Positions 12,429-58,525 of a stretch of 64,000 bases of DNA are shown piece by piece. How positions within the stretch are numbered: position 1 is the first letter of the stretch; each line of letters begins with the position of its first letter. The notes below the pieces were generated by a model, which worked only from the letters and a program-made list of their open reading frames with translations, had not been told where the DNA came from and did no database searches. Source of the DNA: Candidatus Omnitrophota bacterium (lineage in GTDB: Bacteria; Omnitrophota; Gorgyraeia; Zapsychrales; Zapsychraceae); contig DATDQB010000024.1 of assembly GCA_035292445.1 (NCBI GenBank), positions 267 to 64,266 of the forward strand, given 5' to 3'. Made by a program: the position numbers and the translations under genes.

Positions 12429-12431
12429 CGA

Positions 12432-12650
12432 ATGGTAGCTGAAACTTTCATTATTATTGCGATCATGTTCGTAGCCGTTATGGGGCCGTCGCTGGTGATC
12501 GCCCTTGTCGGCCAGTCGGTCATTAAGGCCCTGGCCAGAAATCCGTCTGCGGCCTCCAAGATATTTATGGGAATGATTGTTCTATTGCTTTTTGTCGAGG
12601 CGATTGCCATTGTTGCGTTGTTGGTGATTTTTCAGCTGTTCTCGAATTAA
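12432..12650 (+). CDS. atpE: F-type ATPase c subunit (proteolipid)
   Basis: 72 aa, two TM helices, loop ARNPSAAS (compare ARQPE), conserved carboxylate in helix 2 (FVEAIAI). Confidence 0.7.
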   Translation: MVAETFIIIAIMFVAVMGPSLVIALVGQSVIKALARNPSAASKIFMGMIVLLLFVEAIAIVALLVIFQLFSN

Positions 12651-12659
12651 AGGGACAAA

Positions 12660-12893
12660 ATGGAACCGTTTAATTTAGTAAGCGAGGCCGTCATCTTTAT
12701 CGCCGTGTTTTCGATCGTTGTCATGCTACCGTGCTATTTCGTGGTCATGATCGGGCGAGATATGATCGATCAGATCGGGCAGTTCCCGACGATGGCGGCA
12801 AGGATCCAATTGAAGGCGCTGTTTAAACTGGTGGCGGTCGAACTGGTGTCGTTTTTTCTTTTGATCGCCTTTTACCGCGTATTTGCCCATTAA
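12660..12893 (+). CDS. Small two-helix membrane protein, possibly a second divergent c-like proteolipid (Glu in helix 2, AVELVSFF)
   Basis: 77 aa, RBS aaaggga, two hydrophobic helices, located between atpE and atpF. Assignment is by position and topology only. Confidence 0.4.
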   Translation: MEPFNLVSEAVIFIAVFSIVVMLPCYFVVMIGRDMIDQIGQFPTMAARIQLKALFKLVAVELVSFFLLIAFYRVFAH

Positions 12894-12914
12894 AAATAAA
12901 AAGGAGTTGATCCT

Positions 12915-30639: not shown

Positions 30640-30640
30640 G

Positions 30641-30793
30641 GTTCGACGCGCTCTTCGCTTCGCTCAGAGCTTGTCCCTCGACTCTGCTCGGGATCCTTCG
30701 AGGGATCCTGAGCTAGCCGAAGGACTCACCATAAATTATAGCGGCGAACCACCCTGAGCGAGGCTGCCATTGGCGGCCGAGTCGAAGGGTTAC
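30641..30793. repeat. Intergenic repeat element, copy 1 (long form with a ~65-nt internal insertion)
   Basis: Shares ggttcgacgcgcTttcgctt.gctca...tcaccat...cgaaccaccctgagcgag...gagtcgaagggt with copy 54579-54667. Confidence 0.55.
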
Positions 30794-30866
30794 TACCACT
30801 TTTTCTACATATCTTTTCAATAAAATCCTTTCAATGGTATACTAATGACAATTGAAAGGATTTTTT

Positions 30867-31595: not shown

Positions 31596-31839
31596 AATGG
31601 GCTTAAGGAAACGAAATTGGCTTTTTGGCACACGATATTCTATACTTAAAATGAGACGTAAAAAGCAATTTGACGATAAGGGCAAACCAGGAGTAATCCT
31701 GGGACGCAAAACTATCCCGACGTTTTCTCAGAACGAATTAAGAGGAAGTCGGGACCCCGACCGAAGCGTCGGGGCAGGGTCCTTAAACAAGGATAGCCAG
31801 GTGCCGAATCAAATGTTAAGAAAGATCACATATGAGATG

Positions 31840-36218: not shown

Positions 36219-36290
36219 TTTTCTTTAATTTTCCCCTTCGCGTCAATTTTTACTTCTCTTCAAGTTTTTTATTTATTCCCTTGATTAGTG

Positions 36291-36328
36291 TTAACCAACA
36301 AATTTATAATTATATAAAAGTTGGTTAA
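36291..36328. promoter_or_regulatory. Perfect 9-bp inverted repeat TTAACCAAC-N20-GTTGGTTAA just upstream of the RBS of the 36345 gene
   Basis: ttaaccaac at 36291-36299, gttggttaa at 36320-36328, RBS aaggagg at 36330-36336. Confidence 0.5.
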
Positions 36329-36344
36329 TAAGGAGGCTTTATCC

Positions 36345-36719
36345 ATGAAAGAGCGTTTGGAGCGTGAGTTGAAAAGGCTGCGGGCCGCTTACACAAGCAG
36401 CCGGCGCTCTTACCAGAGGTTCAAAAAGGGGTGTTTGGTCAAGAAAACCATCAAAGGCCGGCCGTATTATTACTTGGCCCAACGGCAGGGGAAAAAGGTT
36501 TTTTATACCTATCGGGGGAAGCTGGGCAAGAGAGAGATCGAAAGGTATGAGGCGGACAGGTGCCGGAGGAAAGATTGTTCTTGCGCGCTTAAAAACTTAA
36601 GAGAACAGATCGTTTGGCGGGAGCGGTTGATGAAAATTTTGCAGAGGGTGGAAGCTCATCCGCTGGATCTCGGTATTTTTGGGCCCGGCATCATACGCCT
36701 GGAGTTCCCAAAATTATAA
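36345..36719 (+). CDS. Basic hypothetical protein
   Basis: The track start at 36321 is TTG. ATG 36345 has a perfect aaggagg RBS 8 nt upstream. No recognisable domain. Confidence 0.45.
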   Translation: MKERLERELKRLRAAYTSSRRSYQRFKKGCLVKKTIKGRPYYYLAQRQGKKVFYTYRGKLGKREIERYEADRCRRKDCSCALKNLREQIVWRERLMKILQRVEAHPLDLGIFGPGIIRLEFPKL

Positions 36720-37249: not shown

Positions 37250-37322
37250 TGGGCCATGCAGGACTCGAACCTGCCACCCAGTGATTAAGAGTCACTTGCT
37301 CTACCAGATGAGCTAATGGCCC
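37250..37322 (-). tRNA. tRNA-Lys (anticodon CTT)
   Basis: The reverse complement folds as a cloverleaf: acceptor GGGCCAT/ATGGCCC, D stem GCTC/GAGC, anticodon stem AGTGA/TCACT with loop CTCTTAA, T loop TTCGAGT. No encoded CCA. Confidence 0.85.
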
Positions 37323-37370
37323 GGAGGGTGATATTTATAACAAACTTTAAGGACGCTGTAAAGACATTTA

Positions 37371-37400
37371 AGCAGTAAGTCGTAAGCGGTAAGCGGTAAG
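37371..37400. repeat. Left arm (GTAAGC-unit tandem) of the inverted repeat flanking the four-helix-bundle gene
   Basis: agcagtaagtcgtaagcggtaagcggtaag. Complementary to 37826-37857 (cgcttactacttactgcttacagcttattgct). Confidence 0.7.
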
Positions 37401-37458
37401 TTTTTTAAAAAAAGGTTCATCCCCCTCATAAACAAGAATAAATAAACAGGAGGGGAAA

Positions 37459-37824
37459 ATGAAAGTAAAAACGTTTCAAGATTTGGTTGTTTGGCAAAAA
37501 GCACATGCATTTGTTTTAGAAGTGTATAAATTGACGAGACAATTTCCAGAGGAAGAACGGTTTGGGGTAACTACTCAGGTGCGCAGATCATCTGTTTCAA
37601 TTTGCGCAAATATAGTTGAAGGCTATAAAAAGAGCGATAGAGAGTTTTTAAGGTTTTTAGATATATCCCAAGCCTCGTTAGAAGAAACAAAATATCATTT
37701 AATTTTAAGTAAGGACTTAGGGTACTGTTTGCACAATACGTTCAATGAATTAACGGAAATATGTGATGAGTTGGGTAGAATGATAAATGGATTAATGAGA
37801 GCAATTAGAGCAAGCAAAACTTAA
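37459..37824 (+). CDS. Four-helix-bundle protein (TIGR02436 family, formerly called 23S rRNA intervening-sequence protein)
   Basis: LVVWQKAHAFVLEVYKLTRQFPEEERFGVTTQVRRSSVSICANIVEGYKK is the family signature. The gene is AT-rich and sits inside an inverted-repeat hairpin. Confidence 0.8.
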   Translation: MKVKTFQDLVVWQKAHAFVLEVYKLTRQFPEEERFGVTTQVRRSSVSICANIVEGYKKSDREFLRFLDISQASLEETKYHLILSKDLGYCLHNTFNELTEICDELGRMINGLMRAIRASKT

Positions 37825-37825
37825 C

Positions 37826-37857
37826 GCTTACTACTTACTGCTTACAGCTTATTGCTC
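37826..37857. repeat. Right arm of the inverted repeat flanking the four-helix-bundle gene
   Basis: See the left arm at 37371-37400. Confidence 0.7.
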
Positions 37858-38693: not shown

Positions 38694-38696
38694 CAA

Positions 38697-38759
38697 TGTA
38701 GGGGCGGGCCTTGCGTCCGCCCAGAAGATATTGGGCAACCGCAAGGGGTTGCCCCTACA
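38697..38759 (+). ncRNA. Structured intergenic element: 9-bp outer stem enclosing two GC-rich hairpins (three-way junction) between the transketolase halves
   Basis: tgtaggggc[gggcgg-gccttgcgt-ccgccc]agaagatatt[gggcaacc-gcaagg-ggttgccc]ctaca. Outer stem tgtaggggc/gcccctaca. Confidence 0.45.
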
Positions 38760-38781
38760 ATATTTCATCTAGGAGAATATT

Positions 38782-41658: not shown

Positions 41659-41850
41659 TCCTTCGACTCATTAATTTTTTTTATAGCCACTTACCGCTCA
41701 GGACTAATGGTGAGCAATAAAACTGGTGAAAAAATTTAGTTGTCGAACCATTAGCAAAGGCGTTTTTTGTTGAAAAATAAAAATCATGAAATACTTGTAT
41801 CGAGGGGCTTGCTCCATAAGTATAATTGTATTAATAATATTATTATAACT

Positions 41851-43326
41851 ATGGACCCTTGGCGTCATTTAAAAAACCTTAATAAAAGCCAAATCACCGA
41901 GCTTCAGAATAAGAAGCTGCGCGATTTTATCCGCCACTACGTTTATCCCTTCAGCCCTCATTACAGAAAAATTTTTGATGACAATAAGATCGATCCGGAA
42001 TCTATCAAGACAGCCGATGATCTAAGGCGCGTCCCGTTCATTTCAAAGAAGGATTTCCTGGAGAATGAAACAAAATTCCGCGATTGCGTTTTGCAACCCG
42101 ATGCCCAGAAGATCAAAAAATTTTGGAACGCCTCGCGCCTGACCAAGTTCATTTTTGAAAGAACTTTTAAAGGGAAAGAGTACGTTGAGCATAAACTCGG
42201 CTTTGAATTCCGCCCTGTTTTCATGACCTTCACCGGCGGCACGACCAACCAGCCCGTTGTGTTCCTTTATACCAATTACGACATCCAGAACCTGCATACC
42301 TCCGGCGCCCGGATGGTGAATTTATTCGACATCAAACCGGATGAAAGGATCGTCAATATATTCCCTTACGCGCCGCATCTGGCCTTTTGGCAGGTCGTCT
42401 TCGGCGCCTTCGCTTCCAACGTCATGGCGCTCAGTACCGGCGGCGGAAAGACCATCGGCACCGAGGGCAACATCAAAGCGCTTTTGAGGATGAAGCCCAG
42501 CGTCGTCATGGGCGTCCCCAGTTATGTTTATCACGTCTTTCGCACGGCGCGCGAGCAGGGATGCAAAATGGATTTTGTCAAAAAGGTCGTTTTGGGGGCC
42601 GCGCGGGTGACGGTCGCTTTCAAGCAAAAGTTGGCCGAGATCATAGAAGGGATGGGGGCCAGGGACGTTGCCATTTTCGGGACGTACGGCTTTACGGAAG
42701 CGCGTTGCGCTTGGGCGGAAAGCCCATCGCCGTTGGATGTCTCAAGCGGGTATCATCTTTACCCGGACAAAGAGATCTTCGAGGTGATCGACCCTGAGAC
42801 AGGAGAGGTCAAGAAAGAAGGCGAAGACGGAGAATTGGTATATACGGGGCTCGATGCCCGCGGCAGCGTGATGTTGCGTTATCGCACGGGGGACTTTGTC
42901 AAAGGCGGGATCACCTACGCCCCGTCAAAATATTCCCGTTTAAGCGTTCCGCGCATTTCAAGCGACATCACCCGGTTATCCGATGTCAAGGACCTGCAGT
43001 TCTCCAAAGTCAAAGGGGCTCTTATGAATTTCAGCGTTTTTCCCGCTTTGTTCTCGGAGATCAAAGCGATCGATGAATGGCAGATCGAGCTTAAGAAAAG
43101 GAACAATGACCCCTTTGATATGGATGAAATGGTCATTTACGCCACCATCAAGAACCATAACAACCCGGACAAGTTGAAAGAGGAAATTAAAAGCAGGATG
43201 GTGGCGGTGACGGAAGTATCGCCCAATGAGATCCATTTCATCGGCATGGATGAGATGGTGAAGCGCCTGGAGCTTGAGACCGCGAATAAGGAAAGAAGGA
43301 TTTTGGATAACAGGCCGAAGTCGTGA
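41851..43326 (+). CDS. Adenylate-forming enzyme, phenylacetate-CoA ligase (PaaK) / coenzyme F390 synthetase-like family
   Basis: FTGGTTNQPVVF (variant of the AMP-binding TSGTTGxP motif), YGFTEA, PaaK-like length. The track ORF starts at 41767, but its first 28 codons lie in the AT-rich repeat region, so I used ATG 41851. Confidence 0.65.
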   Translation: MDPWRHLKNLNKSQITELQNKKLRDFIRHYVYPFSPHYRKIFDDNKIDPESIKTADDLRRVPFISKKDFLENETKFRDCVLQPDAQKIKKFWNASRLTKFIFERTFKGKEYVEHKLGFEFRPVFMTFTGGTTNQPVVFLYTNYDIQNLHTSGARMVNLFDIKPDERIVNIFPYAPHLAFWQVVFGAFASNVMALSTGGGKTIGTEGNIKALLRMKPSVVMGVPSYVYHVFRTAREQGCKMDFVKKVVLGAARVTVAFKQKLAEIIEGMGARDVAIFGTYGFTEARCAWAESPSPLDVSSGYHLYPDKEIFEVIDPETGEVKKEGEDGELVYTGLDARGSVMLRYRTGDFVKGGITYAPSKYSRLSVPRISSDITRLSDVKDLQFSKVKGALMNFSVFPALFSEIKAIDEWQIELKKRNNDPFDMDEMVIYATIKNHNNPDKLKEEIKSRMVAVTEVSPNEIHFIGMDEMVKRLELETANKERRILDNRPKS

Positions 43327-43392
43327 ATCGTGGATCGTAGATCGCGAATCGTGGATCTTTGACGAACCACGATCCACAATGCACGATCCACG
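43327..43392. repeat. Intergenic inverted repeat built from CGTGGATC units, no cargo
   Basis: atcgtggatcgtagatcgcgaatcgtggatc ... gaaccacgatccacaatgcacgatccacga. Confidence 0.7.
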
Positions 43393-43405
43393 AGAAGGAT
43401 AAATT

Positions 43406-44692
43406 ATGAGCCGTATAGCTGTTGTCGATGGTATTCGAACTCCTTTTTGCAAAATGGGGACGGATTTTAACGACCTCTCCGCCCAAGAGCTGGGGCGTTT
43501 GGCGGCGCGGGAACTCCTGGAGCGTACCGGCTTTGATCCGCATGATCTGAGCGAAGTGATCTTCGGTTGCGTTGGCCAGCCGGCAGATGCGGCCAATATT
43601 TCCCGCGTGGTTGCTTTAATGGCCGGCGTGCCCAAAGAAGTGCCGGCCTATACGGTGCACCGTAACTGCGCTTCAGGGGTTGAATCGGCTGTCCAGGCCT
43701 TTATGAAGATCCAGGTCGGGGAAGGGGATTGTTATCTGGTCGGCGGCACCGAGTCCATGAGCAATATCCCGGTCTATTTGGCCAAATCGCTTCAGGACCA
43801 ATACATGGGGCTGCCCAGGGCAAAAACGTTTGGCCAAAAGGTTGGCAGCATTCTAAAGTTCTATTCCAAGTATTTAAATTTCCAGAAGAATTTAAGGGTC
43901 GGCCTGCAATTAGGCTTGACCGATCCGGTCTGCGGGCTTTTGATGGGGGGCACCGCGGAGGTTTTGGTCAAGGAATTCGGGATCACGCGCAGACAGCAGG
44001 ATGAGTTCGCGCTTCTTAGCCATCAGCGCGCTATCGCCGCAAAAAAAATTTTACGCGAGGAGATCATGCCGATCATTCCCGGTCCCAAATATAAGGCGGC
44101 CGTGCAGGATGATAACGGACCGCGCGAAGGCCAGACGATGGAAGCGCTGGCCAAATTAAAGCCTTATTTTGAGCGTGGCACGGGCTCGGTAACGGTGGGC
44201 AATTCCAGCCAAGTTACCGACGGAGCCGCCGCGTTATTGATCATGTCAGATGAAAAGGCCAGGAGCTTGGGGTATAAGCCGTTGGGTTTTATCAAATCCT
44301 ACGCTTTTGCCGGCGTTGAACCGGACCGGATGGGGATCGGCCCGGCGCACGCGATCCCGAAAGCGTTAAAGAAAGCGCAATTGAAGCTAAGGGACATGAA
44401 AGCCGTTGAGATCAACGAGGCTTTTGCGGCGCAGGTCTTGGCGTGCCTGAAAGCGCTGGCCAGCGACGATTTCGCGAAAAAATTCGGTTATGAGGGATTT
44501 ACGGGAGAGATCAACCGGGAGATCCTAAACGTGAACGGCGGCGCCATTGCCTTGGGGCATCCGGTCGGCACGAGCGGGACAAGGTTGATCCTCACCATGC
44601 TTAAACATATGAACCGCCAGAACCTGGATTTCGGGCTGGTTTCGCTTTGTGTGGGCGGAGGCCAGGGGGCCGCGGTGGTTTTGGAAAGATAA
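43406..44692 (+). CDS. Acetyl-CoA C-acyltransferase (thiolase)
   Basis: NCASGVESAV (active-site Cys), C-terminal GHPVGTSG and CVGGGQG. Confidence 0.9.
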   Translation: MSRIAVVDGIRTPFCKMGTDFNDLSAQELGRLAARELLERTGFDPHDLSEVIFGCVGQPADAANISRVVALMAGVPKEVPAYTVHRNCASGVESAVQAFMKIQVGEGDCYLVGGTESMSNIPVYLAKSLQDQYMGLPRAKTFGQKVGSILKFYSKYLNFQKNLRVGLQLGLTDPVCGLLMGGTAEVLVKEFGITRRQQDEFALLSHQRAIAAKKILREEIMPIIPGPKYKAAVQDDNGPREGQTMEALAKLKPYFERGTGSVTVGNSSQVTDGAAALLIMSDEKARSLGYKPLGFIKSYAFAGVEPDRMGIGPAHAIPKALKKAQLKLRDMKAVEINEAFAAQVLACLKALASDDFAKKFGYEGFTGEINREILNVNGGAIALGHPVGTSGTRLILTMLKHMNRQNLDFGLVSLCVGGGQGAAVVLER

Positions 44693-44708
44693 AAAAGGAG
44701 TATCGAGT

Positions 44709-44775
44709 CGTAAGCCATAAGCTGTAAGCCTTAAAAAAAATTTAAAGCTTACGGCTTAAAGCTTACGGCTTAAGG
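44709..44775. repeat. Intergenic inverted repeat built from GTAAGC/GCTTAC units, no cargo
   Basis: cgtaagccataagctgtaagcc-ttaaaaaaaatttaaa-gcttacggcttaaagcttacggcttaagg. Confidence 0.7.
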
Positions 44776-44781
44776 CTAAAT

Positions 44782-46911
44782 ATGGGCGTTTTTTTAAAAC
44801 AAGATAAAGACATCGCGTACATCGAATTCGACCTTCCTGATTCCAAAGTGAATCTTTTGACCGGTGAGGTCTTAAAGAAATTGGACGGGATCTTGGGCAT
44901 CATAAACTCCGATCAAAAGATCAAAGCGGTCGTCATTTCAAGTAAAAAGCAAAATGTGTTCATCGCTGGCGCCGATATTAAAGAAATAGAGCAGATCACG
45001 GACCCCTCTGAAGGCGCCGAAAAAGCCAGGCTGGGCCAGGATATTTTCAATAAGCTCGAGGACTTAAGCGCCCCCACGATCGCCGTCATCGATGGCGTTG
45101 TTTTAGGCGGCGGCTGTGAGCTCATTCTCGCCTGCACGTACCGCATCGCCACGTTTAACGAGAAGGTAAGGATCGGCCTTCCTGAAGTCAATTTAGGCAT
45201 CCTCCCGGGTTTCGGCGGGACGTACCGCATGCCGCGCACCGTCGGCCTTTCGGACGGGCTTACGTTAATTTTAACGGGAAAGCCCATCGACAGCCGTAAG
45301 GCGTTCAAGATGGGCTTGGTGGACCGGCTCGTTCCCCAGGCCGGGTTAAAGGAAAGCGCGGAGGGTTTTGTCCAGGAGATCCTCCAGTATCAATCGCACC
45401 GGAAATACCGGCCTAAAAAGAAAAAGGGGATCCTTGGATTTATGGAAGGGAACCCGTTGGGGCACAAGATCATTTTTCATCAATCCCGGCAGAACGTGCT
45501 GAAAGCCTCGAAAGGGTTTTATCCGGCCCCTTTAAGGGCCATCGATACGGTTAAAAAAAGTTTCACCATGAGCCGGGAAGCCGGCCTTAAGCTCGAAAGG
45601 AACGCTTTCGCGGAACTTGTTGGCACGAACGTATGCAAGAATTTGATCAAAGTTTTTTATCTTTCCGAAAAATATAAAAAGTTAAGCCTTGAGGGGGCGG
45701 AGAATATCAAGCCGCAACCGGTTCACAAATGCGGCATCCTGGGCGCCGGCGTGATGGGAGGCGGGATCGCGCAGCTTTTAAGCTCCAGAGATATTTCCGC
45801 GCGGTTAAAGGACATCAATTTTGAGGCGCTGGCGAGCGGCCTAAAGGCGGCCAAGAAGATCTATGACCAGGCTGTTAAGAAGAGAGTTTTCACCCAAGCC
45901 CAGGCGCAGCGAAAGATGGCGCAGATCACGACGACCTTGGATTATACGGGTTTTCAAAATGTCGACTGCGTGATCGAGGCGGTCGTTGAGAATTTGGAGG
46001 TTAAGAAAAAGGTCTTTCAGGAAGTGAGCGAGGCGGTTTCTCCCAGGACGATTCTTGCGACCAATACCTCGGCGTTATCCGTGACCAAGATGGCTGCCCA
46101 GGCCAAAGACCCCTCCAAGACAATCGGTTTCCATTTTTTTAATCCGGTGCACCGCATGCCGCTCATCGAGATCATCGTGGCCCCCCAAACTTCATCGGAT
46201 ACGGTCGTGAGCGCTTTGGAGTTGGCGAAGCGTTTGGGCAAGATCCCCATTTTGGTCAAGGACTCCTGCGGATTTTTGGTGAACCGCATCCTTCTGCATT
46301 ATATCAATGAGGCCGGATATCTCTTGGAGGAAACCGGAAATGTTGAGGCTATTGATGAGGCGATCACTAAATTCGGCATGCCGATGGGCCCGTTCTTGCT
46401 TTCCGATGAAGTCGGGCTTGACGTCGGAATAAAAGTTTTGCACATTTTGGAACAAAATTTCGGCGAACGTTTCAAAGTGGCCGCTATTTTTGAGAAGATC
46501 ACCCAGGCCGGGATGCTGGGTAAAAAAGGCGGCAAAGGCTATTACCTCCATGAGAGTGAGAAACGCCACGTTAACCCGGAAATCTCAAAGATGCTGCCTA
46601 ACGTCCATTTCAAGGCATTCGATTTAGCTCAATGCCAGCAACGGTTGGTTTTTGCCATGGTTAACGAGGCGGCGCGATGCCTGGAAGACGGCATCATCAA
46701 AGAGGCGGATACGGTCGATGCCGGCATGATCTTCGGGACAGGATTTCCGCCGTTTCACGGAGGGCTGTTGCGTTATGCCGATCAGGCGGGCATCGGGTCT
46801 ATCGTGGAAAGGCTGGATGAATTTTGCAACAAGTTCCAGACGAATCGGCTTCGCCCTTGCGAATATTTGCGGGATATGGCAAAAAAAGGAAAAAGGTTTT
46901 ATAGCCGCTGA
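44782..46911 (+). CDS. Fatty-acid oxidation complex alpha subunit (enoyl-CoA hydratase / 3-hydroxyacyl-CoA dehydrogenase), FadJ/FadB type
   Basis: Crotonase fold (FIAGADI, GGGCELILAC) followed by an NAD-binding GILGAGVMGGGIA and a 3HCDH C-domain. Confidence 0.9.
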   Translation: MGVFLKQDKDIAYIEFDLPDSKVNLLTGEVLKKLDGILGIINSDQKIKAVVISSKKQNVFIAGADIKEIEQITDPSEGAEKARLGQDIFNKLEDLSAPTIAVIDGVVLGGGCELILACTYRIATFNEKVRIGLPEVNLGILPGFGGTYRMPRTVGLSDGLTLILTGKPIDSRKAFKMGLVDRLVPQAGLKESAEGFVQEILQYQSHRKYRPKKKKGILGFMEGNPLGHKIIFHQSRQNVLKASKGFYPAPLRAIDTVKKSFTMSREAGLKLERNAFAELVGTNVCKNLIKVFYLSEKYKKLSLEGAENIKPQPVHKCGILGAGVMGGGIAQLLSSRDISARLKDINFEALASGLKAAKKIYDQAVKKRVFTQAQAQRKMAQITTTLDYTGFQNVDCVIEAVVENLEVKKKVFQEVSEAVSPRTILATNTSALSVTKMAAQAKDPSKTIGFHFFNPVHRMPLIEIIVAPQTSSDTVVSALELAKRLGKIPILVKDSCGFLVNRILLHYINEAGYLLEETGNVEAIDEAITKFGMPMGPFLLSDEVGLDVGIKVLHILEQNFGERFKVAAIFEKITQAGMLGKKGGKGYYLHESEKRHVNPEISKMLPNVHFKAFDLAQCQQRLVFAMVNEAARCLEDGIIKEADTVDAGMIFGTGFPPFHGGLLRYADQAGIGSIVERLDEFCNKFQTNRLRPCEYLRDMAKKGKRFYSR

Positions 46912-46913
46912 CC

Positions 46914-47474
46914 ATGGACCGGCGCACTAAACAAAAAATCATCTTCGCTCTTATAGGGATCTTGGGCGTTCTTTTGATCAGTTACGCCGGGGTTGTTTAT
47001 TATCAGGGGTACGGTTTTAGAAAATACACGGACCGGCAGGCTGGTTTCAGCATCCAGTACCCGCGCGAGTGGGCGTACGCGCCCAATAAGGACGGGGCAA
47101 ACGTCATTTTTTATACGCCGCTGGAAAGCGATTATGATGCGTTTCAAGAAAATATCAATGTGGCGGTCAAGGATATTTCAGCCAATCCGGTGGGTCTTGA
47201 CGAATTTACAAGGATCGCCATCAGGCAAATGGAAATCGTTTTTAAGGACCGGATAGAAGTCCTGGAGTCGACGCCCTATAATCTCGGGAACCGGTTCGGG
47301 CATAAATTTGTTTTTCAGATCAAAGGCATTGCTTTGTCAGCGAGAATGATGATGGTATGGACGGTCAAGGGTGACAAGGCATTTCAAGTCACCTATACCG
47401 CCCAGACAGATACTTATGGTCATTATATGGATATAGTCGAAAAAATGCTCAAGTCTTTTAAACTTCTAGGTTAG
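46914..47474 (+). CDS. Membrane-anchored PsbP/DUF1795-like hypothetical protein. Paralog of the 28527 gene
   Basis: N-terminal TM, FSIQYPREWAY motif. Confidence 0.45.
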   Translation: MDRRTKQKIIFALIGILGVLLISYAGVVYYQGYGFRKYTDRQAGFSIQYPREWAYAPNKDGANVIFYTPLESDYDAFQENINVAVKDISANPVGLDEFTRIAIRQMEIVFKDRIEVLESTPYNLGNRFGHKFVFQIKGIALSARMMMVWTVKGDKAFQVTYTAQTDTYGHYMDIVEKMLKSFKLLG

Positions 47475-47476
47475 AA

Positions 47477-48544
47477 ATGGTCATGCTTATTTCTCCAAAT
47501 GAGCTCCGGGACGTGAAAGGAACGCAACCCCTTTGCCCGCTTTTCGGTGAATGCGGCGGCTGCGCTTTCCAGGACATCCCTTATGAAGAAGAGCTTCTTA
47601 TTAAGGAGAGGACCGTTAAAGAAGAGCTTTGCCGGTGGATAGATGTGGAGGAAAAGGCCTTTGAGCCTATGATCGGCTCTCCCCAACCGTATCGCTACCG
47701 CCATCGCATCGACCTTAAGCTCCAGAAGACCAGAAACGGCATTTTGATCGGTTTCACGCCAAAGGAGGGATTTGGTATCCTTCCGGTCGATAATTGCCCG
47801 ATCGCCGAGGATAGCATTAACCGGCTCATCCCGGCGATCAAACAGGAGGCGCTGGGTAAGATCACGGCCAAGCACCGGCAGGCCAATTTGGTCATCCGCA
47901 CATCGCAAGACGGCCGCGTCTTTTGGGGCGGGATCGGGCGGAAGTCCTTGAGGATGAAAGAAGAGGATTATTTTTGGGCCGAAATTAATGGCCGAAGGAT
48001 CTTTTACTCATTGGATACTTTTTTTCAGGCGAATTTATCCATTCTTCCCAAGCTGATCCAAACGATGCGCGAGTTAAAGATCTGGTCAAAAGAGCGCATC
48101 TTGTTCGATCTCTACGGCGGGGTCGGCTTGTTCGGGATTTCGCTCGCCGATCTGGTGAAGAAAGTCATTCTTATCGAAGAAGTCGGCGCGTCCATTGAAT
48201 TGGCGCGCCACAATGCCGCCTATCATCGCTACTCCAATATGGATGTTATCGAAGGCCGGGTGGAAGACCGATGGCCCACGCTTATCGAAGGGCAAAACGG
48301 CCAAGGCCATATCATTATCATTGACCCGCCCCGTTCGGGCTTAAGCCCGCAAGCCAAAAATGTTTTGTGCTCGAGCGATAACGTGAAGTTTATTTTATAC
48401 CTCTCATGCAACCCGACATCGCTGGCGAGGGACCTGGCCGATTTCTTAAAAGAAGGGTGGCAGCTGAAAAAAGTCATCCCGTTTGATTTTTTCCCTAAAA
48501 CAAAACATATCGAAACATTGGCCTTATTAGAGAGGCAAACATGA
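47477..48544 (+). CDS. 23S rRNA (uracil-C5)-methyltransferase, RlmD/RumA family (Fe-S plus class I SAM methyltransferase)
   Basis: Four-Cys cluster CPLFGECGGCAFQ...C, SAM motif DLYGGVGLFG, IIIIDPPRSGL. Confidence 0.8.
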   Translation: MVMLISPNELRDVKGTQPLCPLFGECGGCAFQDIPYEEELLIKERTVKEELCRWIDVEEKAFEPMIGSPQPYRYRHRIDLKLQKTRNGILIGFTPKEGFGILPVDNCPIAEDSINRLIPAIKQEALGKITAKHRQANLVIRTSQDGRVFWGGIGRKSLRMKEEDYFWAEINGRRIFYSLDTFFQANLSILPKLIQTMRELKIWSKERILFDLYGGVGLFGISLADLVKKVILIEEVGASIELARHNAAYHRYSNMDVIEGRVEDRWPTLIEGQNGQGHIIIIDPPRSGLSPQAKNVLCSSDNVKFILYLSCNPTSLARDLADFLKEGWQLKKVIPFDFFPKTKHIETLALLERQT

Positions 48545-48840
48545 AACAAAATCCAATGCCCTACCAAAAACAAATTTTTGTTTGCACTAATGATCGAAAG
48601 GGTGAAAAGCCCAGTTGCGGCGACCATCAGGGTGATATCATTTTCCAACAATTACGCCAGATCGCCAAGGACCGGGGGCTGCATCCCAAGATCCGCGTGG
48701 CGCAGGCCAAATGCTTGGGCCAATGCGCGCAAGGGACAACGATCATGATCTATCCGGATAATATCTGGTATTCCAGCGTCCGGTTGGAAGATGTGTCAAC
48801 GATTGCCGAACAATACTTAAAACCATCAAGAACGGAGTAA
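48541..48840 (+). CDS. Thioredoxin-like [2Fe-2S] ferredoxin
   Basis: Four Cys in CTNDRKG...SCGDH...CLGQCAQG. Confidence 0.6.
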   Translation: MKQNPMPYQKQIFVCTNDRKGEKPSCGDHQGDIIFQQLRQIAKDRGLHPKIRVAQAKCLGQCAQGTTIMIYPDNIWYSSVRLEDVSTIAEQYLKPSRTE

Positions 48841-48844
48841 TGCC

Positions 48845-50671
48845 ATGAGCCTATTTGATAAAAATATGAGCGCCGAGAAAAAAGCCTCGCTGGAATTTGC
48901 CGAGGACCAGCGGGAAACGGAGTGGAAGCACCCCTCCTTCGCCTTGCAGCTGTTTCACGGCAACCCCGACTGGCGGCTGATCCATCCTTTTCCGGCGCAG
49001 TCGCAAGAGGATAAACGCACCGGCGATGAATACGTGGCCGCCCTCCAGGATTTCCTTGTCAAGAACCTTGACCCTAATGAAGTGGACCAAACCGGCATCA
49101 TCCCGGAGAAAGTTTATAAAGGGCTTAGCCAGTTAAAGGCCTTTGCCATGAAGATCCCCAAAGAATACGGTGGCCTGGGCCTAAGCCAGGTCAATTATAA
49201 CCGCGCTATCCATCTGGTATCCAGTTACTGCGGGTCAACGGCCGTTTTGCTCTCCGCGCATCAAAGTATCGGCGTGCCCCAGCCGTTAAAATTGTTCGGG
49301 ACCGAGGAGCAGAAAAAAAAATATTTTCCGATGTTCGCCAAAGGCGCGATTTCGGCGTTCGCTTTGACCGAGCCCGGCGCGGGCTCCGACCCGCGGAAAA
49401 TGACGACGACGGCGAACCCCATCGAAGACGGGAAATATTTCCTGATCAACGGGGAGAAGCTCTGGTGCACCAATGGCCCGATCGCCCAAGTGATCGTGGT
49501 CATGGCGGTAACGCCGCCCGTCATGGTCGATGGAAAAGAGAAAAAACAGATCACGGCCTTTATTGTCGAAACCAGCACACCGGGGGTTGAAACGGTCCAT
49601 CGTTGCAAATTCATGGGGCTCAATGGCATTCAAAATGGGCTTCTTCGGTTTACGAACGTTAAAGTGCCGCGGGAGAATATCATCCTTAAAGAAGGAGAAG
49701 GGCTTAAGCTGGCACTGACGACCTTGAACACGGGGCGCCTGACGCTGCCGGCCGCATCCGTCGGTATCGCCAAATGGTGCCTGAACGTTTCGCGCAAATG
49801 GGCCGGCCAGCGCAAGCAATGGGGCGCGGCGATCGGCGAGCATGAAAGCATCGCCCTTAAATTAAGTTATATCACCGGCCACACCTTTGCGATGGACGCG
49901 ATGGCCTGGCTGACCTCGGCCATGGCGGATGATAAAAAGAACGATATCCGCATCGAAGCGGCCATCGCCAAATATTTTTGCACGCATCACAGCTGGGTCA
50001 TTACCGACGAAACGCTTCAGATCCGCGGCGGGCAGGGCTATGAGCAGTACGCATCGCTCAAAGCCCGCGGCACGGACAGCTGGCCGGTGGAGCGGGTGTT
50101 GAGGGACGTGCGCATCAATCTGATCATTGAGGGCACCTCGGAGATCATGCATCTATTCATCGCCCGCGAGGCCTTGGACCCGCACTTGCGCCAACTCAAG
50201 GCGATGTTAAAGGGGAAAATTTTACCTGTGCTCGGGCATTATCTATGGTGGTATCCGGCGCTTTGGTGCCCTTCCATCACTACGTTCCAAACGGTCGATG
50301 GGGGTTTGAAGCGGCATATGCGTTATGTGCAAAATACCAGCAAACGCCTCGCTTTGGAAACATTTCACCAGATGATGAAATATCAAAAGAAGCTTGAGGC
50401 CCGCCAGGCGATCCTTAACCGCATCGTCGATATCGGGACCGAGCTTTTTGCGATGGCCGCCACCTGTTCGTACGCGGACCATTTGGCCAGGACACAGCCC
50501 GAGCAAGCCAACGCCGTGGAACTGGCGGATCTCTTCTGCCGCGCTTCCCGGGCGCGGATCGCGGATCTATTTAAGGAGAACGCCAGTAATTTTGACAAGC
50601 AGAGCATCTCGGTATCCAAAAAACTCTTGGCCGGCCGCTATGAATGGCTGGAGAATGAGATAATTAAATAA
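48845..50671 (+). CDS. Long-chain acyl-CoA dehydrogenase family protein (FadE-like, ~600 aa)
   Basis: ACAD N, middle and C domains (FALTEPGAGSD, LINGEKLWCTNG, IRGGQGY) with a C-terminal extension. Confidence 0.8.
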   Translation: MSLFDKNMSAEKKASLEFAEDQRETEWKHPSFALQLFHGNPDWRLIHPFPAQSQEDKRTGDEYVAALQDFLVKNLDPNEVDQTGIIPEKVYKGLSQLKAFAMKIPKEYGGLGLSQVNYNRAIHLVSSYCGSTAVLLSAHQSIGVPQPLKLFGTEEQKKKYFPMFAKGAISAFALTEPGAGSDPRKMTTTANPIEDGKYFLINGEKLWCTNGPIAQVIVVMAVTPPVMVDGKEKKQITAFIVETSTPGVETVHRCKFMGLNGIQNGLLRFTNVKVPRENIILKEGEGLKLALTTLNTGRLTLPAASVGIAKWCLNVSRKWAGQRKQWGAAIGEHESIALKLSYITGHTFAMDAMAWLTSAMADDKKNDIRIEAAIAKYFCTHHSWVITDETLQIRGGQGYEQYASLKARGTDSWPVERVLRDVRINLIIEGTSEIMHLFIAREALDPHLRQLKAMLKGKILPVLGHYLWWYPALWCPSITTFQTVDGGLKRHMRYVQNTSKRLALETFHQMMKYQKKLEARQAILNRIVDIGTELFAMAATCSYADHLARTQPEQANAVELADLFCRASRARIADLFKENASNFDKQSISVSKKLLAGRYEWLENEIIK

Positions 50672-50680
50672 AGATAATCA

Positions 50681-50761
50681 AGTCATCAGTCATCAGCCGT
50701 CAGTCTTCAGAAGTTATCGGGCTGACAGTTTCTGACGACTGAAGACTGAAGACGGACGACT
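50681..50761. repeat. Intergenic inverted repeat built from GTCATCAG/GTCTTCAG units, no cargo
   Basis: agtcatcagtcatcagccgtcagtcttcag ... ctgacgactgaagactgaagacggacgac. Confidence 0.65.
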
Positions 50762-50767
50762 TTAACA

Positions 50768-54401: not shown

Positions 54402-54517
54402 TGCGCTTAGAAGGCTGGATATTCATGATTTTGTCATGGGGGGTCATTTTGATCGCGATGGCCTATTGCATGATCAAGGTCTTAAGGTCAGAAGCGTCCC
54501 GCCATCATAACGAATAA
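54401..54517 (+). CDS. Small single-TM protein (38 aa) immediately after the NSS transporter
   Basis: ATG overlaps the transporter stop, RBS gaaggga. MRLEGWIFMILSWGVILIAMAYCMIKVL. Confidence 0.4.
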   Translation: MRLEGWIFMILSWGVILIAMAYCMIKVLRSEASRHHNE

Positions 54518-54578
54518 GCACCTGCCGCCAATTCATTGGCAACTTAACCTCGCTGTGCTATAATGCCCTCACTTTAAT

Positions 54579-54667
54579 GGTTCGACGCGCTTCGCTTGCT
54601 CACCATTGGATTATATGTCGAACCACCCTGAGCGAGTCTCGCTTTCAGCGAGACGAGTCGAAGGGTC
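54579..54667. repeat. Intergenic repeat element, copy 2 (short form)
   Basis: ggttcgacgcgcttcgcttgctcaccattggattatatgtcgaaccaccctgagcgagtctcgctttcagcgagacgagtcgaagggtc, with internal stems ggttcgac/gtcgaacc and tctcgct/agcgaga. Confidence 0.55.
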
Positions 54668-56819: not shown

Positions 56820-57179
56820 ATGGTTGCGATGGAACGGAAATTTGATTTGGAAGAAAGGACAACGAATTTTGCGAAAGGCGTGATTCAATTATGCAGGGAA
56901 TTACCAAGGGACCCGATTAATGATCGTTTGATGGGGCAGGTTGTTGGTTCAGCTGGTTCAGTAGGAGCTAATTATAGAGAGGCTAATGATGCATTGGGAA
57001 AGAAAGATTTTTTACAGAAAATCAAGATTGCGCGTAGGGAAGCCAAAGAAACGCAGCATTGGTTAACTTTGATCGCTGAGGCGAATGCAGCAAAAAGAAC
57101 TACAATAGTTCCTTTAATAGACGAAGTTGTGGAACTTAAGAAAATTCTATCATCAATAGCTATTAAATTAGAAAAATAA
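56820..57179 (+). CDS. Four-helix-bundle protein (TIGR02436 family), second copy
   Basis: NFAKGVIQLCRELPRD...GSAGSVGANYREANDALGKKDFLQKIKIARREAKETQHWL. AT-rich and inside an inverted-repeat hairpin. Confidence 0.8.
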   Translation: MVAMERKFDLEERTTNFAKGVIQLCRELPRDPINDRLMGQVVGSAGSVGANYREANDALGKKDFLQKIKIARREAKETQHWLTLIAEANAAKRTTIVPLIDEVVELKKILSSIAIKLEK

Positions 57180-57180
57180 G

Positions 57181-57243
57181 ATTATATTTGGTTATTGGTT
57201 TTTGTAATTTTCTTGTATCTTGTTTCTTGTATCTTGTTTCTTA
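57181..57243. repeat. Right arm of the inverted repeat flanking the second four-helix-bundle gene
   Basis: attatatttggttattggtttttgtaattttcttgtatcttgtttcttgtatcttgtttctt. Confidence 0.7.
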
Positions 57244-57247
57244 GAAT

Positions 57248-58525
57248 ATGAAAACTATAAAATCCGAACAACTATTTAATGAGGCCACGAAGTATTTGGT
57301 GGGTGGCGTGAACTCTCCCGTGCGTTCTTTTAAGGGCGTGGGCGGGCATCCTTTGATCATGAGAGCAGGCGAGAAGGCAACCCTTTTTGACGCCGATAAC
57401 AATAGCTACACGGATTATTGCCTTTCGTGGGGCGCTTTGATCCTCGGCCATGCCCACCGGAACATTGTTTTGAACGCGAAAAAAACGATTGAGCGCGGCT
57501 CAAGTTTCGGCACAACCACCCGTTACGAGATCGACCTGGCCAGAGCGATCATCGAGCGCATCCCGTCCATTGACCTTATCCGTTTTGTCAACTCAGGCAC
57601 CGAAGCGACAATGAGCGCCATCCGCTTGGCGCGCGGGTTCACCAAACGCGATATGTTGGTCAAGTTCGACGGCTGCTACCACGGCCACTTTGACGATCTA
57701 TTGGCCAAGGCCGGAAGCGGGGTGGCGCAGCTGAAAGAGTCATCCAGTTTAGGGATCCCTAAAACGCATATCGAAAACACGCTCAGTTTACCGTATAATG
57801 ACACCAACGCTTTGGCGCAAACGCTTGAGAAATACAAAGAAAAGATCGCCTGCGTCATTATCGAGCCTGTGGCCGGCAACATGGGCGTCATTAAAGCCGA
57901 AAAGGATTTTCTAAAAACGTTAAGGGACCTGACCAAAAAATTCGGCATCGTTCTTATTTTTGATGAGGTCATGACGGGTTTTCGCGCATCAGCCAATTGT
58001 GTCCAGGGAGAATACAACATTATTCCTGACATGACGTGCCTGGGCAAGATCATCGGCGGCGGGTTTCCCGTTGGCGCGTACGGCGGCAGGAAGGACATCA
58101 TGGAACACCTCGCCCCTTTAGGCGGGGTCTACCAGGCCGGGACGTTCTCGGGAAATCCCATGGTCATGAAAGCCGGGCTTGAAACGTTAAAATTGTTGAC
58201 CAAGGAATTTTACAGATCGCTCAATCAACGCTGCGAAAGCATGGCGCAGGAAGTGAACGAGGCGTTCAAGAAAGGCGGCGTTGACGCCCATCTGGCGCAT
58301 TTTCATTCGATGATGAGCGTGCGTTTCCGTAAAGAAGCGGTTCATAATTATCAGGACGCGCAGGATGCCTCCGGCGGGGAAAAGTACCAGAAACTGTTCC
58401 ATCACATGCTTAACGCCGGCATTTACCTGCCGCCGGCGGACCTGGAAGCGTTTTTTATAAGCGGGATGCACACGCCAGCAGATCTTAAGAAACTCGCGCA
58501 GGAGCTCAAGAAGTTCTTTGCTTAA
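57248..58525 (+). CDS. hemL: Glutamate-1-semialdehyde 2,1-aminomutase
   Basis: YLVGGVNSPVRSF, class III aminotransferase fold, PLP lysine region. Confidence 0.9.
   Translation: MKTIKSEQLFNEATKYLVGGVNSPVRSFKGVGGHPLIMRAGEKATLFDADNNSYTDYCLSWGALILGHAHRNIVLNAKKTIERGSSFGTTTRYEIDLARAIIERIPSIDLIRFVNSGTEATMSAIRLARGFTKRDMLVKFDGCYHGHFDDLLAKAGSGVAQLKESSSLGIPKTHIENTLSLPYNDTNALAQTLEKYKEKIACVIIEPVAGNMGVIKAEKDFLKTLRDLTKKFGIVLIFDEVMTGFRASANCVQGEYNIIPDMTCLGKIIGGGFPVGAYGGRKDIMEHLAPLGGVYQAGTFSGNPMVMKAGLETLKLLTKEFYRSLNQRCESMAQEVNEAFKKGGVDAHLAHFHSMMSVRFRKEAVHNYQDAQDASGGEKYQKLFHHMLNAGIYLPPADLEAFFISGMHTPADLKKLAQELKKFFA

Follow-up and report, generated by a model that had tools for sequence, protein, structure and literature searches.

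Short intervening sequences (IVSs, ∼100 nt) in the 23S rRNA of Salmonella, Yersinia and Campylobacter are stem-loops without an open reading frame (ORF), which are excised by RNase III. Other 23S IVSs, located in helix 25 or 45, carry an S23p ORF (Coxiella burnetii, Leptospira, Xanthomonas, Brucella). In these two forms, the 23S IVS is the closest known kind to the elements described here. S23p, also named 23S_rRNA_IVP, is the four-helix-bundle protein of family PF05635. The Coxiella IVS consists of an S23p ORF with a 28-bp terminal stem that is cut by RNase III within the stem, and contains tandem GACAGAT heptamers, the number of which differs among strains (PMC4990558). The authors cite ORF-less short IVSs of 23S rRNA, and offer the hypotheses of a 'transposition remnant' and of a 'mobile element whose ORF supplies a mobility function' (PMC4990558). 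The origin, mobility and purpose of the 23S IVS and of the S23p/PF05635 protein have been an open question since ∼1990. Here we analyze a 64-kb stretch of the genome of a Candidatus Omnitrophota bacterium (assembly GCA_035292445.1, contig DATDQB010000024.1, referred to as the window), containing three ORF-less intergenic hairpins, H1, H2 and H3, and two cassettes with a PF05635 gene. We describe the anatomy of these elements, their family relationships, their presence/absence dynamics and their operon-internal position.

On balance, we consider H1–H3 to be ORF-less members of an IVS-like element family, resembling MITEs (miniature inverted-repeat transposable elements), with the cassettes as its ORF-bearing members. 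The family would comprise dispersed small palindromic elements with two oppositely oriented arms, each built of tandem copies of one degenerate heptamer, the classical 23S rRNA IVS being its rRNA-resident form. It is widespread but barely described, and the same arms flank PF05635 genes from Omnitrophota to cyanobacteria.

H1, H2 and H3 occupy gaps of 79, 89 or 96 nt between co-directional genes of a fatty-acid β-oxidation cluster, encoding acyl-CoA ligase (AMP-binding), thiolase and a FadB-like protein (enoyl-CoA hydratase/3-hydroxyacyl-CoA dehydrogenase), and further on acyl-CoA dehydrogenase and a cNMP-binding patatin. Reading the sequence directly, with arm coordinates obtained by string matching, locates three real inverted repeats where the original prediction had placed them:

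43321..43357, plus strand: H1 left arm, five heptamer units, TCGTGAA TCGTGGA TCGTAGA TCGCGAA TCGTGGA, then TC
43364..43393, plus strand: H1 right arm, CCACGAT-type units
44706..44735, plus strand: H2 left arm, GTAAGCC ATAAGCT GTAAGCC TTAAA
44741..44776, plus strand: H2 right arm, GCTTACG GCTTAAA GCTTACG GCTTAAG GC
50680..50712, plus strand: H3 left arm, AGTCATC AGTCATC AGCCGTC AGTCTTC AG
50730..50762, plus strand: H3 right arm, CTGACGA CTGAAGA CTGAAGA CGGACGA CT

The acyl-CoA ligase gene (41767-43326) has a TGA stop codon that falls within the first unit of the H1 left arm. The H1 loop is ∼6 nt, and the right arm ends 12 nt upstream of the thiolase start codon at 43406, with a GAAGGA ribosome-binding site directly 3′ of the stem. 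The H2 left arm has TAA in all three frames and a 6-nt core in common with the arms of the PF05635 cassette beside tRNA-Lys; the loop is A/T only, and the right arm ends 5 nt upstream of the FadB-like start codon at 44782. The H3 unit belongs to a CAG-containing class, the loop is ∼17 nt, and the right arm has TGA in all three frames and ends 5 nt upstream of the patatin gene start at 50768. With arms of 30-37 nt that are ∼76-83% complementary, all three hairpins have the stem of at least ∼20 bp that is characteristic of IVS-type elements.

An ungapped inverted-repeat scan of the window (28-nt arms, at least 22 Watson-Crick matches, loop of 2-30 nt) returned exactly three sites, namely H1, H2 and H3, and no site in ten first-order Markov simulated windows. 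The RNA folding energies of the sense strands are −34.7, −37.4 and −32.8 kcal/mol for H1, H2 and H3 respectively (z = −4.2, −8.0 and −4.3), and those of the antisense strands −44.8, −33.9 and −44.1 kcal/mol (z = −7.5, −6.3 and −7.9), with 0 of 200 shuffles folding as well in each of the six folds. Four other contigs with an identical thiolase gene are at least 99.97% identical to the window, and the hairpins that they span are all exact matches (H1 and H2 in 4/4, H3 in locus L015), so no strain polymorphism of the window's own hairpins is seen among these four. The identical locus is carried, for example, by the samples ERZ27254861 and SRR3989296. Beyond their architecture, no sequence is common to H1, H2 and H3, and they thus lack the conserved, genome-wide ∼35-nt palindrome that defines repetitive extragenic palindromic (REP) sequences and bacterial interspersed mosaic elements (BIMEs). 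At Rfam gathering thresholds, no family matches the hairpins and no rRNA is found in the window, the only matches being tRNA-Lys and a c-di-GMP-I riboswitch; H1–H3 lie between protein-coding genes, and not within 23S or 16S rRNA.

The repeat unit is 7 nt in all three hairpins (TCGTGGA in H1, GTAAGCN in H2 and AGTCATC/AGTCTTC in H3), rather than the 6- or 8-mers implied by the units first proposed ('CGTGGATC', 'GTAAGC' and 'GTCATCAG'). That H2 shares its unit with the tRNA-Lys cassette was correctly recognized (GTAAGCC/ATAAGCT vs GTAAGCG/GTAAGTC), and both window cassettes also have 7-nt units (TAAGCNG; AAGANAC). A strict threshold returned nine arrays of period 7 and none of other periods from 4 to 12, except for two of period 10. 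At a relaxed threshold, the window and 14 loci from relatives (L001-L014, ∼190 kb) contain 25 arrays of period 7, compared with at most 11 for any other period from 4 to 13; eight of the 25 are in the window, and all eight belong to H1, H2, H3 or the tRNA-Lys cassette. Tandem heptamers in the stem region, a feature of the Coxiella IVS, are thus present in H1–H3 and in both cassettes. Tandem 7-nt units in intergenic DNA are also the hallmark of the short tandemly repeated repetitive (STRR) and TAACTGA repeats, but the arrays here form inverted pairs.

Complementarity between the arms reaches 0.77 in the best register; a shift of 7 or 14 nt lowers it to 0.67, and other shifts lower it to 0.31. 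Two pairing registers of H1 were detected by the repeat search. A simple inverted duplication, in which the order of the units would be mirrored, was considered and rejected because the best-register complementarity is only 0.77 compared with 0.67 in the shifted registers. The arms are therefore two arrays of one degenerate unit, able to zip in several registers. The view that the hairpins have the architecture of the cassette arms, as inverted arrays of one degenerate heptamer, is borne out by the two cassettes of the window:

37369..37404, plus strand: cassette 1 left arm, TAAGCAG TAAGTCG TAAGCGG TAAGCGG TAAG TTTT, adjoining tRNA-Lys (37250-37322, minus strand)
37459..37824, plus strand: cassette 1 cargo, 121-aa PF05635 / bAvd-like four-helix-bundle protein (PF05635 E = 3.6e-39)
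37816..37851, plus strand: cassette 1 right arm, AAAA CTTAACG CTTACTA CTTACTG CTTACAG CTTA, overlapping the ORF stop codon
56734..56803, plus strand: cassette 2 left arm, AAGATAC AAGACAC AAGAAAC AAGG ... AACAAAAACCAAATAAC
56820..57179, plus strand: cassette 2 cargo, 119-aa PF05635 protein (E = 1e-17), divergent from that of cassette 1
57185..57254, plus strand: cassette 2 right arm, ...TCTTGTATCTTGTTTCTTGTATCTTGTTTCTT, matching the right arm of the ORF-less element in locus L002

The left arm of cassette 2 starts at the stop codon of a hemC/cobA/hemD fusion gene. Both cassettes enclose a PF05635 ORF, as long-form IVSs do; the hairpins do not, their loops of 6-17 nt having no PF05635 similarity.

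Upstream of the cassette 1 ORF there is a further hairpin (37416-37463), in which CCCCC pairs with GGAGGGG, sequestering the Shine-Dalgarno sequence. Leader hairpins of the same type occur in L099 (8360-8392) and L100 (6641-6667 and 9968-10000). In these four aligned Omnitrophota cassettes, the Shine-Dalgarno sequence of the gene itself (GGAGG/GGGGG) is paired with a CCCCC tract lying 10-30 nt upstream, with folding energies of −10.6 to −15.9 kcal/mol (z from −2.3 to −3.5). The conservation of this leader hairpin suggests repressed or conditional translation as the normal state of the four-helix-bundle gene.

The original prediction raised the possibility of unusually long terminators, and the identity of H1–H3 as intrinsic terminators, long or otherwise, was considered and rejected. 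They are stable stems that follow stop codons, as terminators do, but they have no T-run (a U-tract in the RNA), 0/3 are called by a terminator scan, and the stems are ∼30 bp long with moderate GC content. They lie inside a conserved operon, at junctions that are 6-21 nt in relatives, and do not follow most convergent or operon-terminal genes: none is found at an operon end, or at a convergent gene junction in the window's ORF layout. In addition, the canonical intrinsic terminator of this genome (30605-30639, AACCCCGCTGGG...CTAGCGGGGTTTTTT, just upstream of the repeat motif copy at 30640) looks entirely different. We regard termination as a highly improbable explanation.

The cassette architecture extends well beyond this genome. 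The cassette 1 protein has 881 homologs at E ≤ 1e-10, and a profile-guided metagenome scan yielded 80 PF05635 loci from varied biomes. On either side of the gene, 120 nt or more are available at 68 of them, and 54 of these 68 loci are flanked by inverted repeats with a score of 26 or higher, compared with a maximum of 22 in shuffled controls; their arms are mostly of period 7, with a few of periods 8-11, and typical units are CAGGAGT or AGAAGAC on the 5′ side and CTCCTGA on the 3′ side. In typical cassettes the 5′ arm is purine-rich and Shine-Dalgarno-like (purine fraction 0.72), and the 3′ arm has a purine fraction of 0.29. The gene upstream of the PF05635 gene is co-directional in 49/62 cases, which fits a promoter-less insertion behind genes. 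For ORF-less hairpins oriented by purine content, the bias relative to host genes is weak (12 vs 7, p = 0.09). None of the 80 metagenomic loci has non-coding flanks or an rRNA-embedded cassette.

A detector for inverted pairs of period-7 arrays, applied to 523 kb, found 69 pairs. The spacer is longer than 120 nt in 56 pairs, 44 of which enclose a PF05635 gene, and in the remaining 13 it is at most 120 nt and contains no ORF. These 13 include loci of unknown taxon (L039, L041, L047, L053, L075) and the Verrucomicrobiota locus L010. The commonest trinucleotide in left-arm units is CAG (28/69 pairs). ORF-less hairpins and cassettes have a repertoire of units in common: the cassette arms of L065 and L085 again contain the units of H3 (CAGTCTT/CAGCCGT) and of L001 (CAGCTAT). 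Inverted arms were also found at two of four inspected loci on finished Nostocales plasmids, Trichormus variabilis ATCC 29413 plasmid C and Nostoc punctiforme pNPUN01. On both plasmids, four-helix-bundle genes lie between CAGGAGT/CAGAATT arrays and CTCCTGA arrays; since these plasmids are finished, the arms are not an assembly artefact. The original prediction of a hairpin family can therefore be extended across genomes and across phyla.

The same detector also found 61 unpaired period-7 arrays, which bear on the idea that the hairpins arise incidentally from microsatellite dynamics of heptamers, of the STRR/TAACTGA type, in which replication slippage expands an array and template switching produces its inverted copy, with neither mobility nor a functional link to PF05635. 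Intergenic heptamer direct repeats are over-represented in cyanobacteria, Beggiatoaceae and Bacteroidetes; the TAACTGA-type tandem heptamers lie close to start and stop codons and are patchy among close relatives, with 169 direct sets and one 'indirect' set in a Beggiatoa genome (PMC4679880). The behavior of the arms as arrays rather than exact mirror copies would be expected from such a process, as would the variation in copy number among strains in Coxiella and in Kappaea (see below). It does not predict, however, that 44 of the 56 long-spacer pairs enclose a PF05635 gene, that whole cassettes are homologous at different loci together with their arms, that colinear copies of ∼85% identity exist at different loci of one genome, or that gain or loss of a hairpin involves all of its 83 nt at once. 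Taken together, these observations make the microsatellite account unlikely.

Evidence for gain and loss comes from the orthologous junctions of relatives. A thiolase search led to syntenic loci in Candidatus Omnitrophota metagenome-assembled genomes (MAGs) at ∼66-72% amino-acid identity, and to a Verrucomicrobiota locus at 51%. The gene order TKN-TKC-TAL-PGL-ACS-THL-FADB-PsbP-TrmA-DUF1636-ACAD-patatin, with the acyl-CoA ligase, thiolase and FadB-like genes as ACS, THL and FADB, is kept in most of these Omnitrophota loci. The ACS|THL junction, which houses H1 in the window, is 17-18 nt in L001 and L002, contains heptamer hairpins with other units in L003, L006 and L013, a GC hairpin in L005 and a 435-nt nested repeat in L009. 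The THL|FADB junction, which houses H2, is 6-21 nt in L003, L004, L007 and L009, contains heptamer hairpins in L001, L006 and L008, and in L002 a 248-nt ORF-less element. TrmA|DUF1636 contains hairpins in L001 and L006, and the two genes overlap in the window. Orthologous gaps are thus either empty (6-21 nt) or occupied among relatives at ∼70% amino-acid identity. In one case, L007 and L008, which belong to one MAG bin, have 93% identity, and the hairpin is a clean indel of 83 nt between them; the flanks of the indel are diverged and A-rich, with a possible TAAA duplication. All three L001 hairpins are of AGCTNTC type.

A hairpin of a different type is located in the window between the split transketolase genes TKN and TKC (38694-38781, TGTAGGGGCGGGCCTTGCGTCCGCCC...GGGCAACCGCAAGGGGTTGCCCCTACA). 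It is also operon-internal, and at −44.1 kcal/mol no other 90-nt window of the sequence folds more stably. It is rich in GC, with two internal mini-hairpins and no heptamer period. The orthologous gap contains a heptamer hairpin in L001 and measures 8-49 nt in the other relatives.

In the Verrucomicrobiota locus L010, heptamer arrays form an inverted pair with a 66-nt spacer at ACS|THL (9855-9994), and a single direct heptamer array (TCTGAAAACTGAAAAC) is present at THL|FADB (11252-11281). Since these arrays lie in a homolog of the same operon, the architecture crosses phylum boundaries within the Planctomycetes-Verrucomicrobia-Chlamydiae (PVC) group.

The ORF-less hairpins form families that are specific to a genome and dispersed within it. 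The MAG GCA_001805375.1 (L006, L099) has three ORF-less elements of CGTGAAG type at three different loci, two of which are colinear with ∼85% identity by eye, and three elements of AGTCAGA type, together with a GGTAAGG hairpin that matches the GGGATAAG/AGGTAAG arms of this genome's own cassette. L100 similarly contains an ORF-less element, whose GTGATCA arms are those of the cassette in the same genome, and the same hairpin families are also present at unrelated loci (e.g. RecG|methyltransferase and plsX|fabH). Consensus units at a distance of at most 1 were found for 10 of 55 within-genome pairs compared with 8 of 155 between-genome pairs (permutation p ∼0.01). Within the 64 kb of the window, H2 has just its unit in common with cassette 1, and there is no second copy of H1 or H3.

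The cassettes provide evidence of movement as a unit. Four cassettes from three genomes can be aligned over their full length together with the arms. Their common layout runs from a G-N-N-R-T-[A/C]-A-G unit through an A-rich stretch and a leader hairpin (CCCCC...GGRGG) to the ORF and the 3′ arm. Their host junctions are different (tRNA-Lys|TKN, fabH|fabD, methyltransferase|CDGSH, and pterin dehydratase|Rrf2), and this arm-to-arm homology at four host junctions therefore implies that cassette and arms moved together. Each array has one unit variant homogenized within it, indicating concerted evolution. In L002, the arm of the ORF-less element is that of window cassette 2, with its 14-nt super-period (TCTTGTATCTTGTTTCTTGTATC), at an alignment score of 65 compared with a shuffle maximum of 39.

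Arms also turn over at the population level. Populations of Candidatus Kappaea frigidicola share an identical ORF and 3′ arm and differ by whole modules in the 5′ arm region. The six loci (L106-L111) have an identical PF05635 protein and identical downstream sequence through the start of the next gene. Their upstream modules are bounded by AGGATTAAG units, each with a ∼32-nt mini-hairpin (GACGCTCACC...GGTGAGCTC), and the upstream gap lengths are 104, 272 and 299 nt, with three contigs ending there. The arm region is a population-level rearrangement hotspot in this species.

Several ORF-less elements are composite (L002 11285-11532, L009 2471-2907, L099 1905-2028 and L100 4632-4883), with outer heptamer arms around small GC hairpins, a heptamer hairpin of a second family, or a terminator-like stem with a T-run. 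Elements of this kind appear to insert into one another.

The hairpins were initially described as possible empty sites or excision scars of PF05635 cassettes. The arm architecture is the same, the H2 unit is that of cassette 1, the A/T-only loop of H2 resembles the A/T runs adjoining the cassette 1 arms, which hints at an origin by deletion, and the L002 element has the arms of cassette 2 without an ORF. However, no occupied orthologous gap in the relatives holds a PF05635 gene, and none was found by tblastn and hidden Markov model (HMM) searches in their ∼190 kb (L001-L014), compared with at least ten hairpins there. A six-frame HMM search with heuristic filters off, which included the 248-nt L002 and 435-nt L009 elements, also found no PF05635 remnant in any ORF-less spacer. 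Moreover, ORF-less copies occur in near-identical multi-copy families of their own, which would not be expected for scars at independent sites. Scars or empty attachment sites are thus improbable as an explanation, and 'ORF-less (non-autonomous or deletion-derived) family members' fits the hairpins better.

In the reading of H1–H3 as such family members, elements would insert, or stay, just after stop codons in gaps between co-transcribed genes. H1–H3 would then be transcribed within the operon mRNA and fold into ∼30-bp double-stranded RNA stems, a length that would satisfy the requirement of RNase III, which is also the enzyme that cuts the 23S IVS stem. By analogy with the latter, RNase III probably cuts the H1–H3 stems, and this cleavage, or blockage of exonucleases, would allow the mRNA upstream and that downstream to meet separate fates. 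The element itself may be selfish or near-neutral. Its unit sequences would drift and be homogenized within and between arms by slippage and concerted evolution, and the ORF-less copies may be deletion derivatives of cassettes or non-autonomous copies mobilized in trans. The cleavage, the mechanism of mobility and any 'excision scar' origin are inferences.

Several observations weigh against this reading. RNase III processing is proposed by analogy only. Mismatches between the arms on the sense strand show no excess of G.U over A.C (62 vs 49 in 54 cassettes; p = 0.25), and H1 and H3 fold better as antisense RNA; the sense RNA therefore bears no sign of selection, and the data accord equally well with a role at the DNA level (cruciform or replication). 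Typical cassette arms have a strong purine/pyrimidine asymmetry that is absent from the window hairpins (0.72/0.29 vs ∼0.5/0.5). The H1 and H3 units match no cassette in the window. Target-site duplication is not established, as the intergenic flanks are too diverged and A/T-rich, and with no PF05635 remnants found in any ORF-less spacer, derivation from cassettes is at most putative. Finally, several relatives have hairpins at the same few gaps, and H1 and the L006 hairpin at the orthologous gap share a CGTGAA core and a TCG-TGA stop. This recurrence and the shared core and stop could reflect long vertical retention, and hence a host function; they leave room for a host benefit.

A host function is the substance of an alternative in which the hairpins are host-selected intercistronic regulators of the β-oxidation operon, with the resemblance to cassette arms being secondary. 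They could act as barriers to 3′-5′ exonucleases, as differential-decay or processing sites, or in translational coupling, hiding the downstream ribosome-binding site until the upstream ribosome arrives. Besides the shared H1/L006 core and stop context, this view gains from the recurrence of hairpins at ACS|THL and THL|FADB in about half of the relatives, from the close fit of the stems between the stop codon upstream and the ribosome-binding site or start codon downstream (5-12 nt away), and from stop codons in all three frames in the H2 and H3 gaps. It is difficult to reconcile with orthologous gaps that are empty (6-21 nt) in many relatives, with a hairpin indel between 93%-identical sequences, with units that differ between genomes at one gap, and with the same hairpin families at unrelated loci; nor does it receive help from the sense strand, given the lack of G.U bias. 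We therefore view regulation selected by the host as rather doubtful.

A bolder form of the element-family reading can be put forward tentatively. The hairpins and PF05635 cassettes may represent an unrecognized class of mobile element whose sole protein is an Avd-like four-helix-bundle pentamer, with ORF-less copies mobilized in trans and arms rebuilt and homogenized by heptamer slippage and exchange between arms rather than faithfully copied. Such rebuilding would explain why each family has a different unit with the same period, and the 23S IVS, STRR and TAACTGA repeats would be facets of one phenomenon.

The stem and heptamer anatomy is found around PF05635 genes in ordinary operons of many phyla, gene-less copies occur in dispersed, genome-specific families, and arms turn over in populations while the ORF is invariant. 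The question of IVS origin thereby becomes testable by comparative genomics, metatranscriptomics and RNase III assays, and the elements may offer a setting in which to understand heptamer repeats that are so far unexplained in cyanobacteria and Beggiatoaceae. Other places where PF05635 genes have been reported are cas operons and rRNA insertions of the candidate phyla radiation (CPR), consistent with promiscuous insertion into transcription units, and reports of 'cas-associated' PF05635 may simply reflect operon insertion. A practical consequence concerns metagenome assemblies, which these elements break, many PF05635 contigs being <1 kb. A large share of contigs with close PF05635 homologs are only 0.5-1 kb, approximately the size of one cassette, which suggests that inverted heptamer arms routinely break short-read assemblies; PF05635 elements are probably under-represented in MAGs.

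In the literature searched, which lies largely outside subscription journals, we found no account in which PF05635 genes outside rRNA generally have inverted arms of heptamers, nor any of ORF-less hairpin counterparts of PF05635 cassettes; earlier notes on cyanobacterial genomes may exist in subscription journals. The only published link between S23p and heptamers that we found is the Coxiella IVS (PMC4990558), and the study of TAACTGA-type repeats has no mention (0 occurrences) of S23 or four-helix-bundle genes (PMC4679880).

Other features of the window are as follows. A shared motif (GGTTCGACGCGCT...GCTCACCAT), with 13 nt identical at 30640 and 54579, lies within GC-rich palindromic intergenic segments (30640-30800 and 54579-54605), and looks like another dispersed repeat family. 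The c-di-GMP-I riboswitch aptamer (31671-31730, plus strand; Rfam, 41.5 bits, gathering threshold 35) is located within or ahead of small ORFs. An ORF of 3076 aa (37-9267) has many internal repeats of ∼39 nt (ATGTCYGAYCAAGGNATYAAYTGGTCNGAYAT), which also score as imperfect palindromes; its product is a giant repeat protein. An AT-rich near-perfect palindrome (36291-36328, TTAACCAACAAATTTATAATTATATAAAAGTTGGTTAA) overlaps a promoter-like site (36281-36310) just upstream of an ORF without a Pfam match (36321-36719), and looks like an operator. Apparent short unannotated ORFs, below the 80-aa listing threshold, are present in the gaps 12429-12914 and 54402-54520, including one directly after an SNF-family transporter gene.

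Among known systems, the direct repeats of the STRR/TAACTGA type resemble the window elements in unit sequence and period. Many units contain CAG or CTGA, TAACTGA is the reverse complement of TCAGTTA, and TAACTGA itself occurs in the right arm of an L001 hairpin. Unlike the inverted arms of the window, however, STRR/TAACTGA repeats are described as direct.

REP sequences and BIMEs of enterobacteria are intergenic, operon-internal imperfect palindromes that act as mRNA stabilizers. REPs are ∼35 nt long, conserved in sequence and linked to RAYT transposases, and have neither a heptamer periodicity nor a PF05635 gene. H1–H3 are likewise intergenic and operon-internal, but differ from REPs in their heptamer period and their link to PF05635.

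The nearest functional analogs of H1–H3 are MITEs of the Correia/NEMIS type. Correia/NEMIS elements of Neisseria, ERIC, RUP and SMAG are small dispersed palindromes that are co-transcribed and form long RNA hairpins, and RNase III cleavage of Correia elements alters mRNA stability. Correia/NEMIS-type elements have a conserved sequence, defined terminal inverted repeats and target-site duplication, whereas in the window elements only the period-7 inverted-array architecture is kept across genomes and the unit sequence varies by family.

The anatomical counterpart remains the 23S IVS. The window cassettes share the stem and PF05635 ORF of the S23p-bearing IVSs, with H1–H3 corresponding to the arms alone; in contrast to those IVSs, the window elements lie between protein-coding genes, and H1–H3 have no ORF. 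The short 23S IVSs that coexist with ORF-bearing ones are a direct analog of cargo-less and cargo-bearing elements, differing from the window hairpins in that they reside in rRNA.

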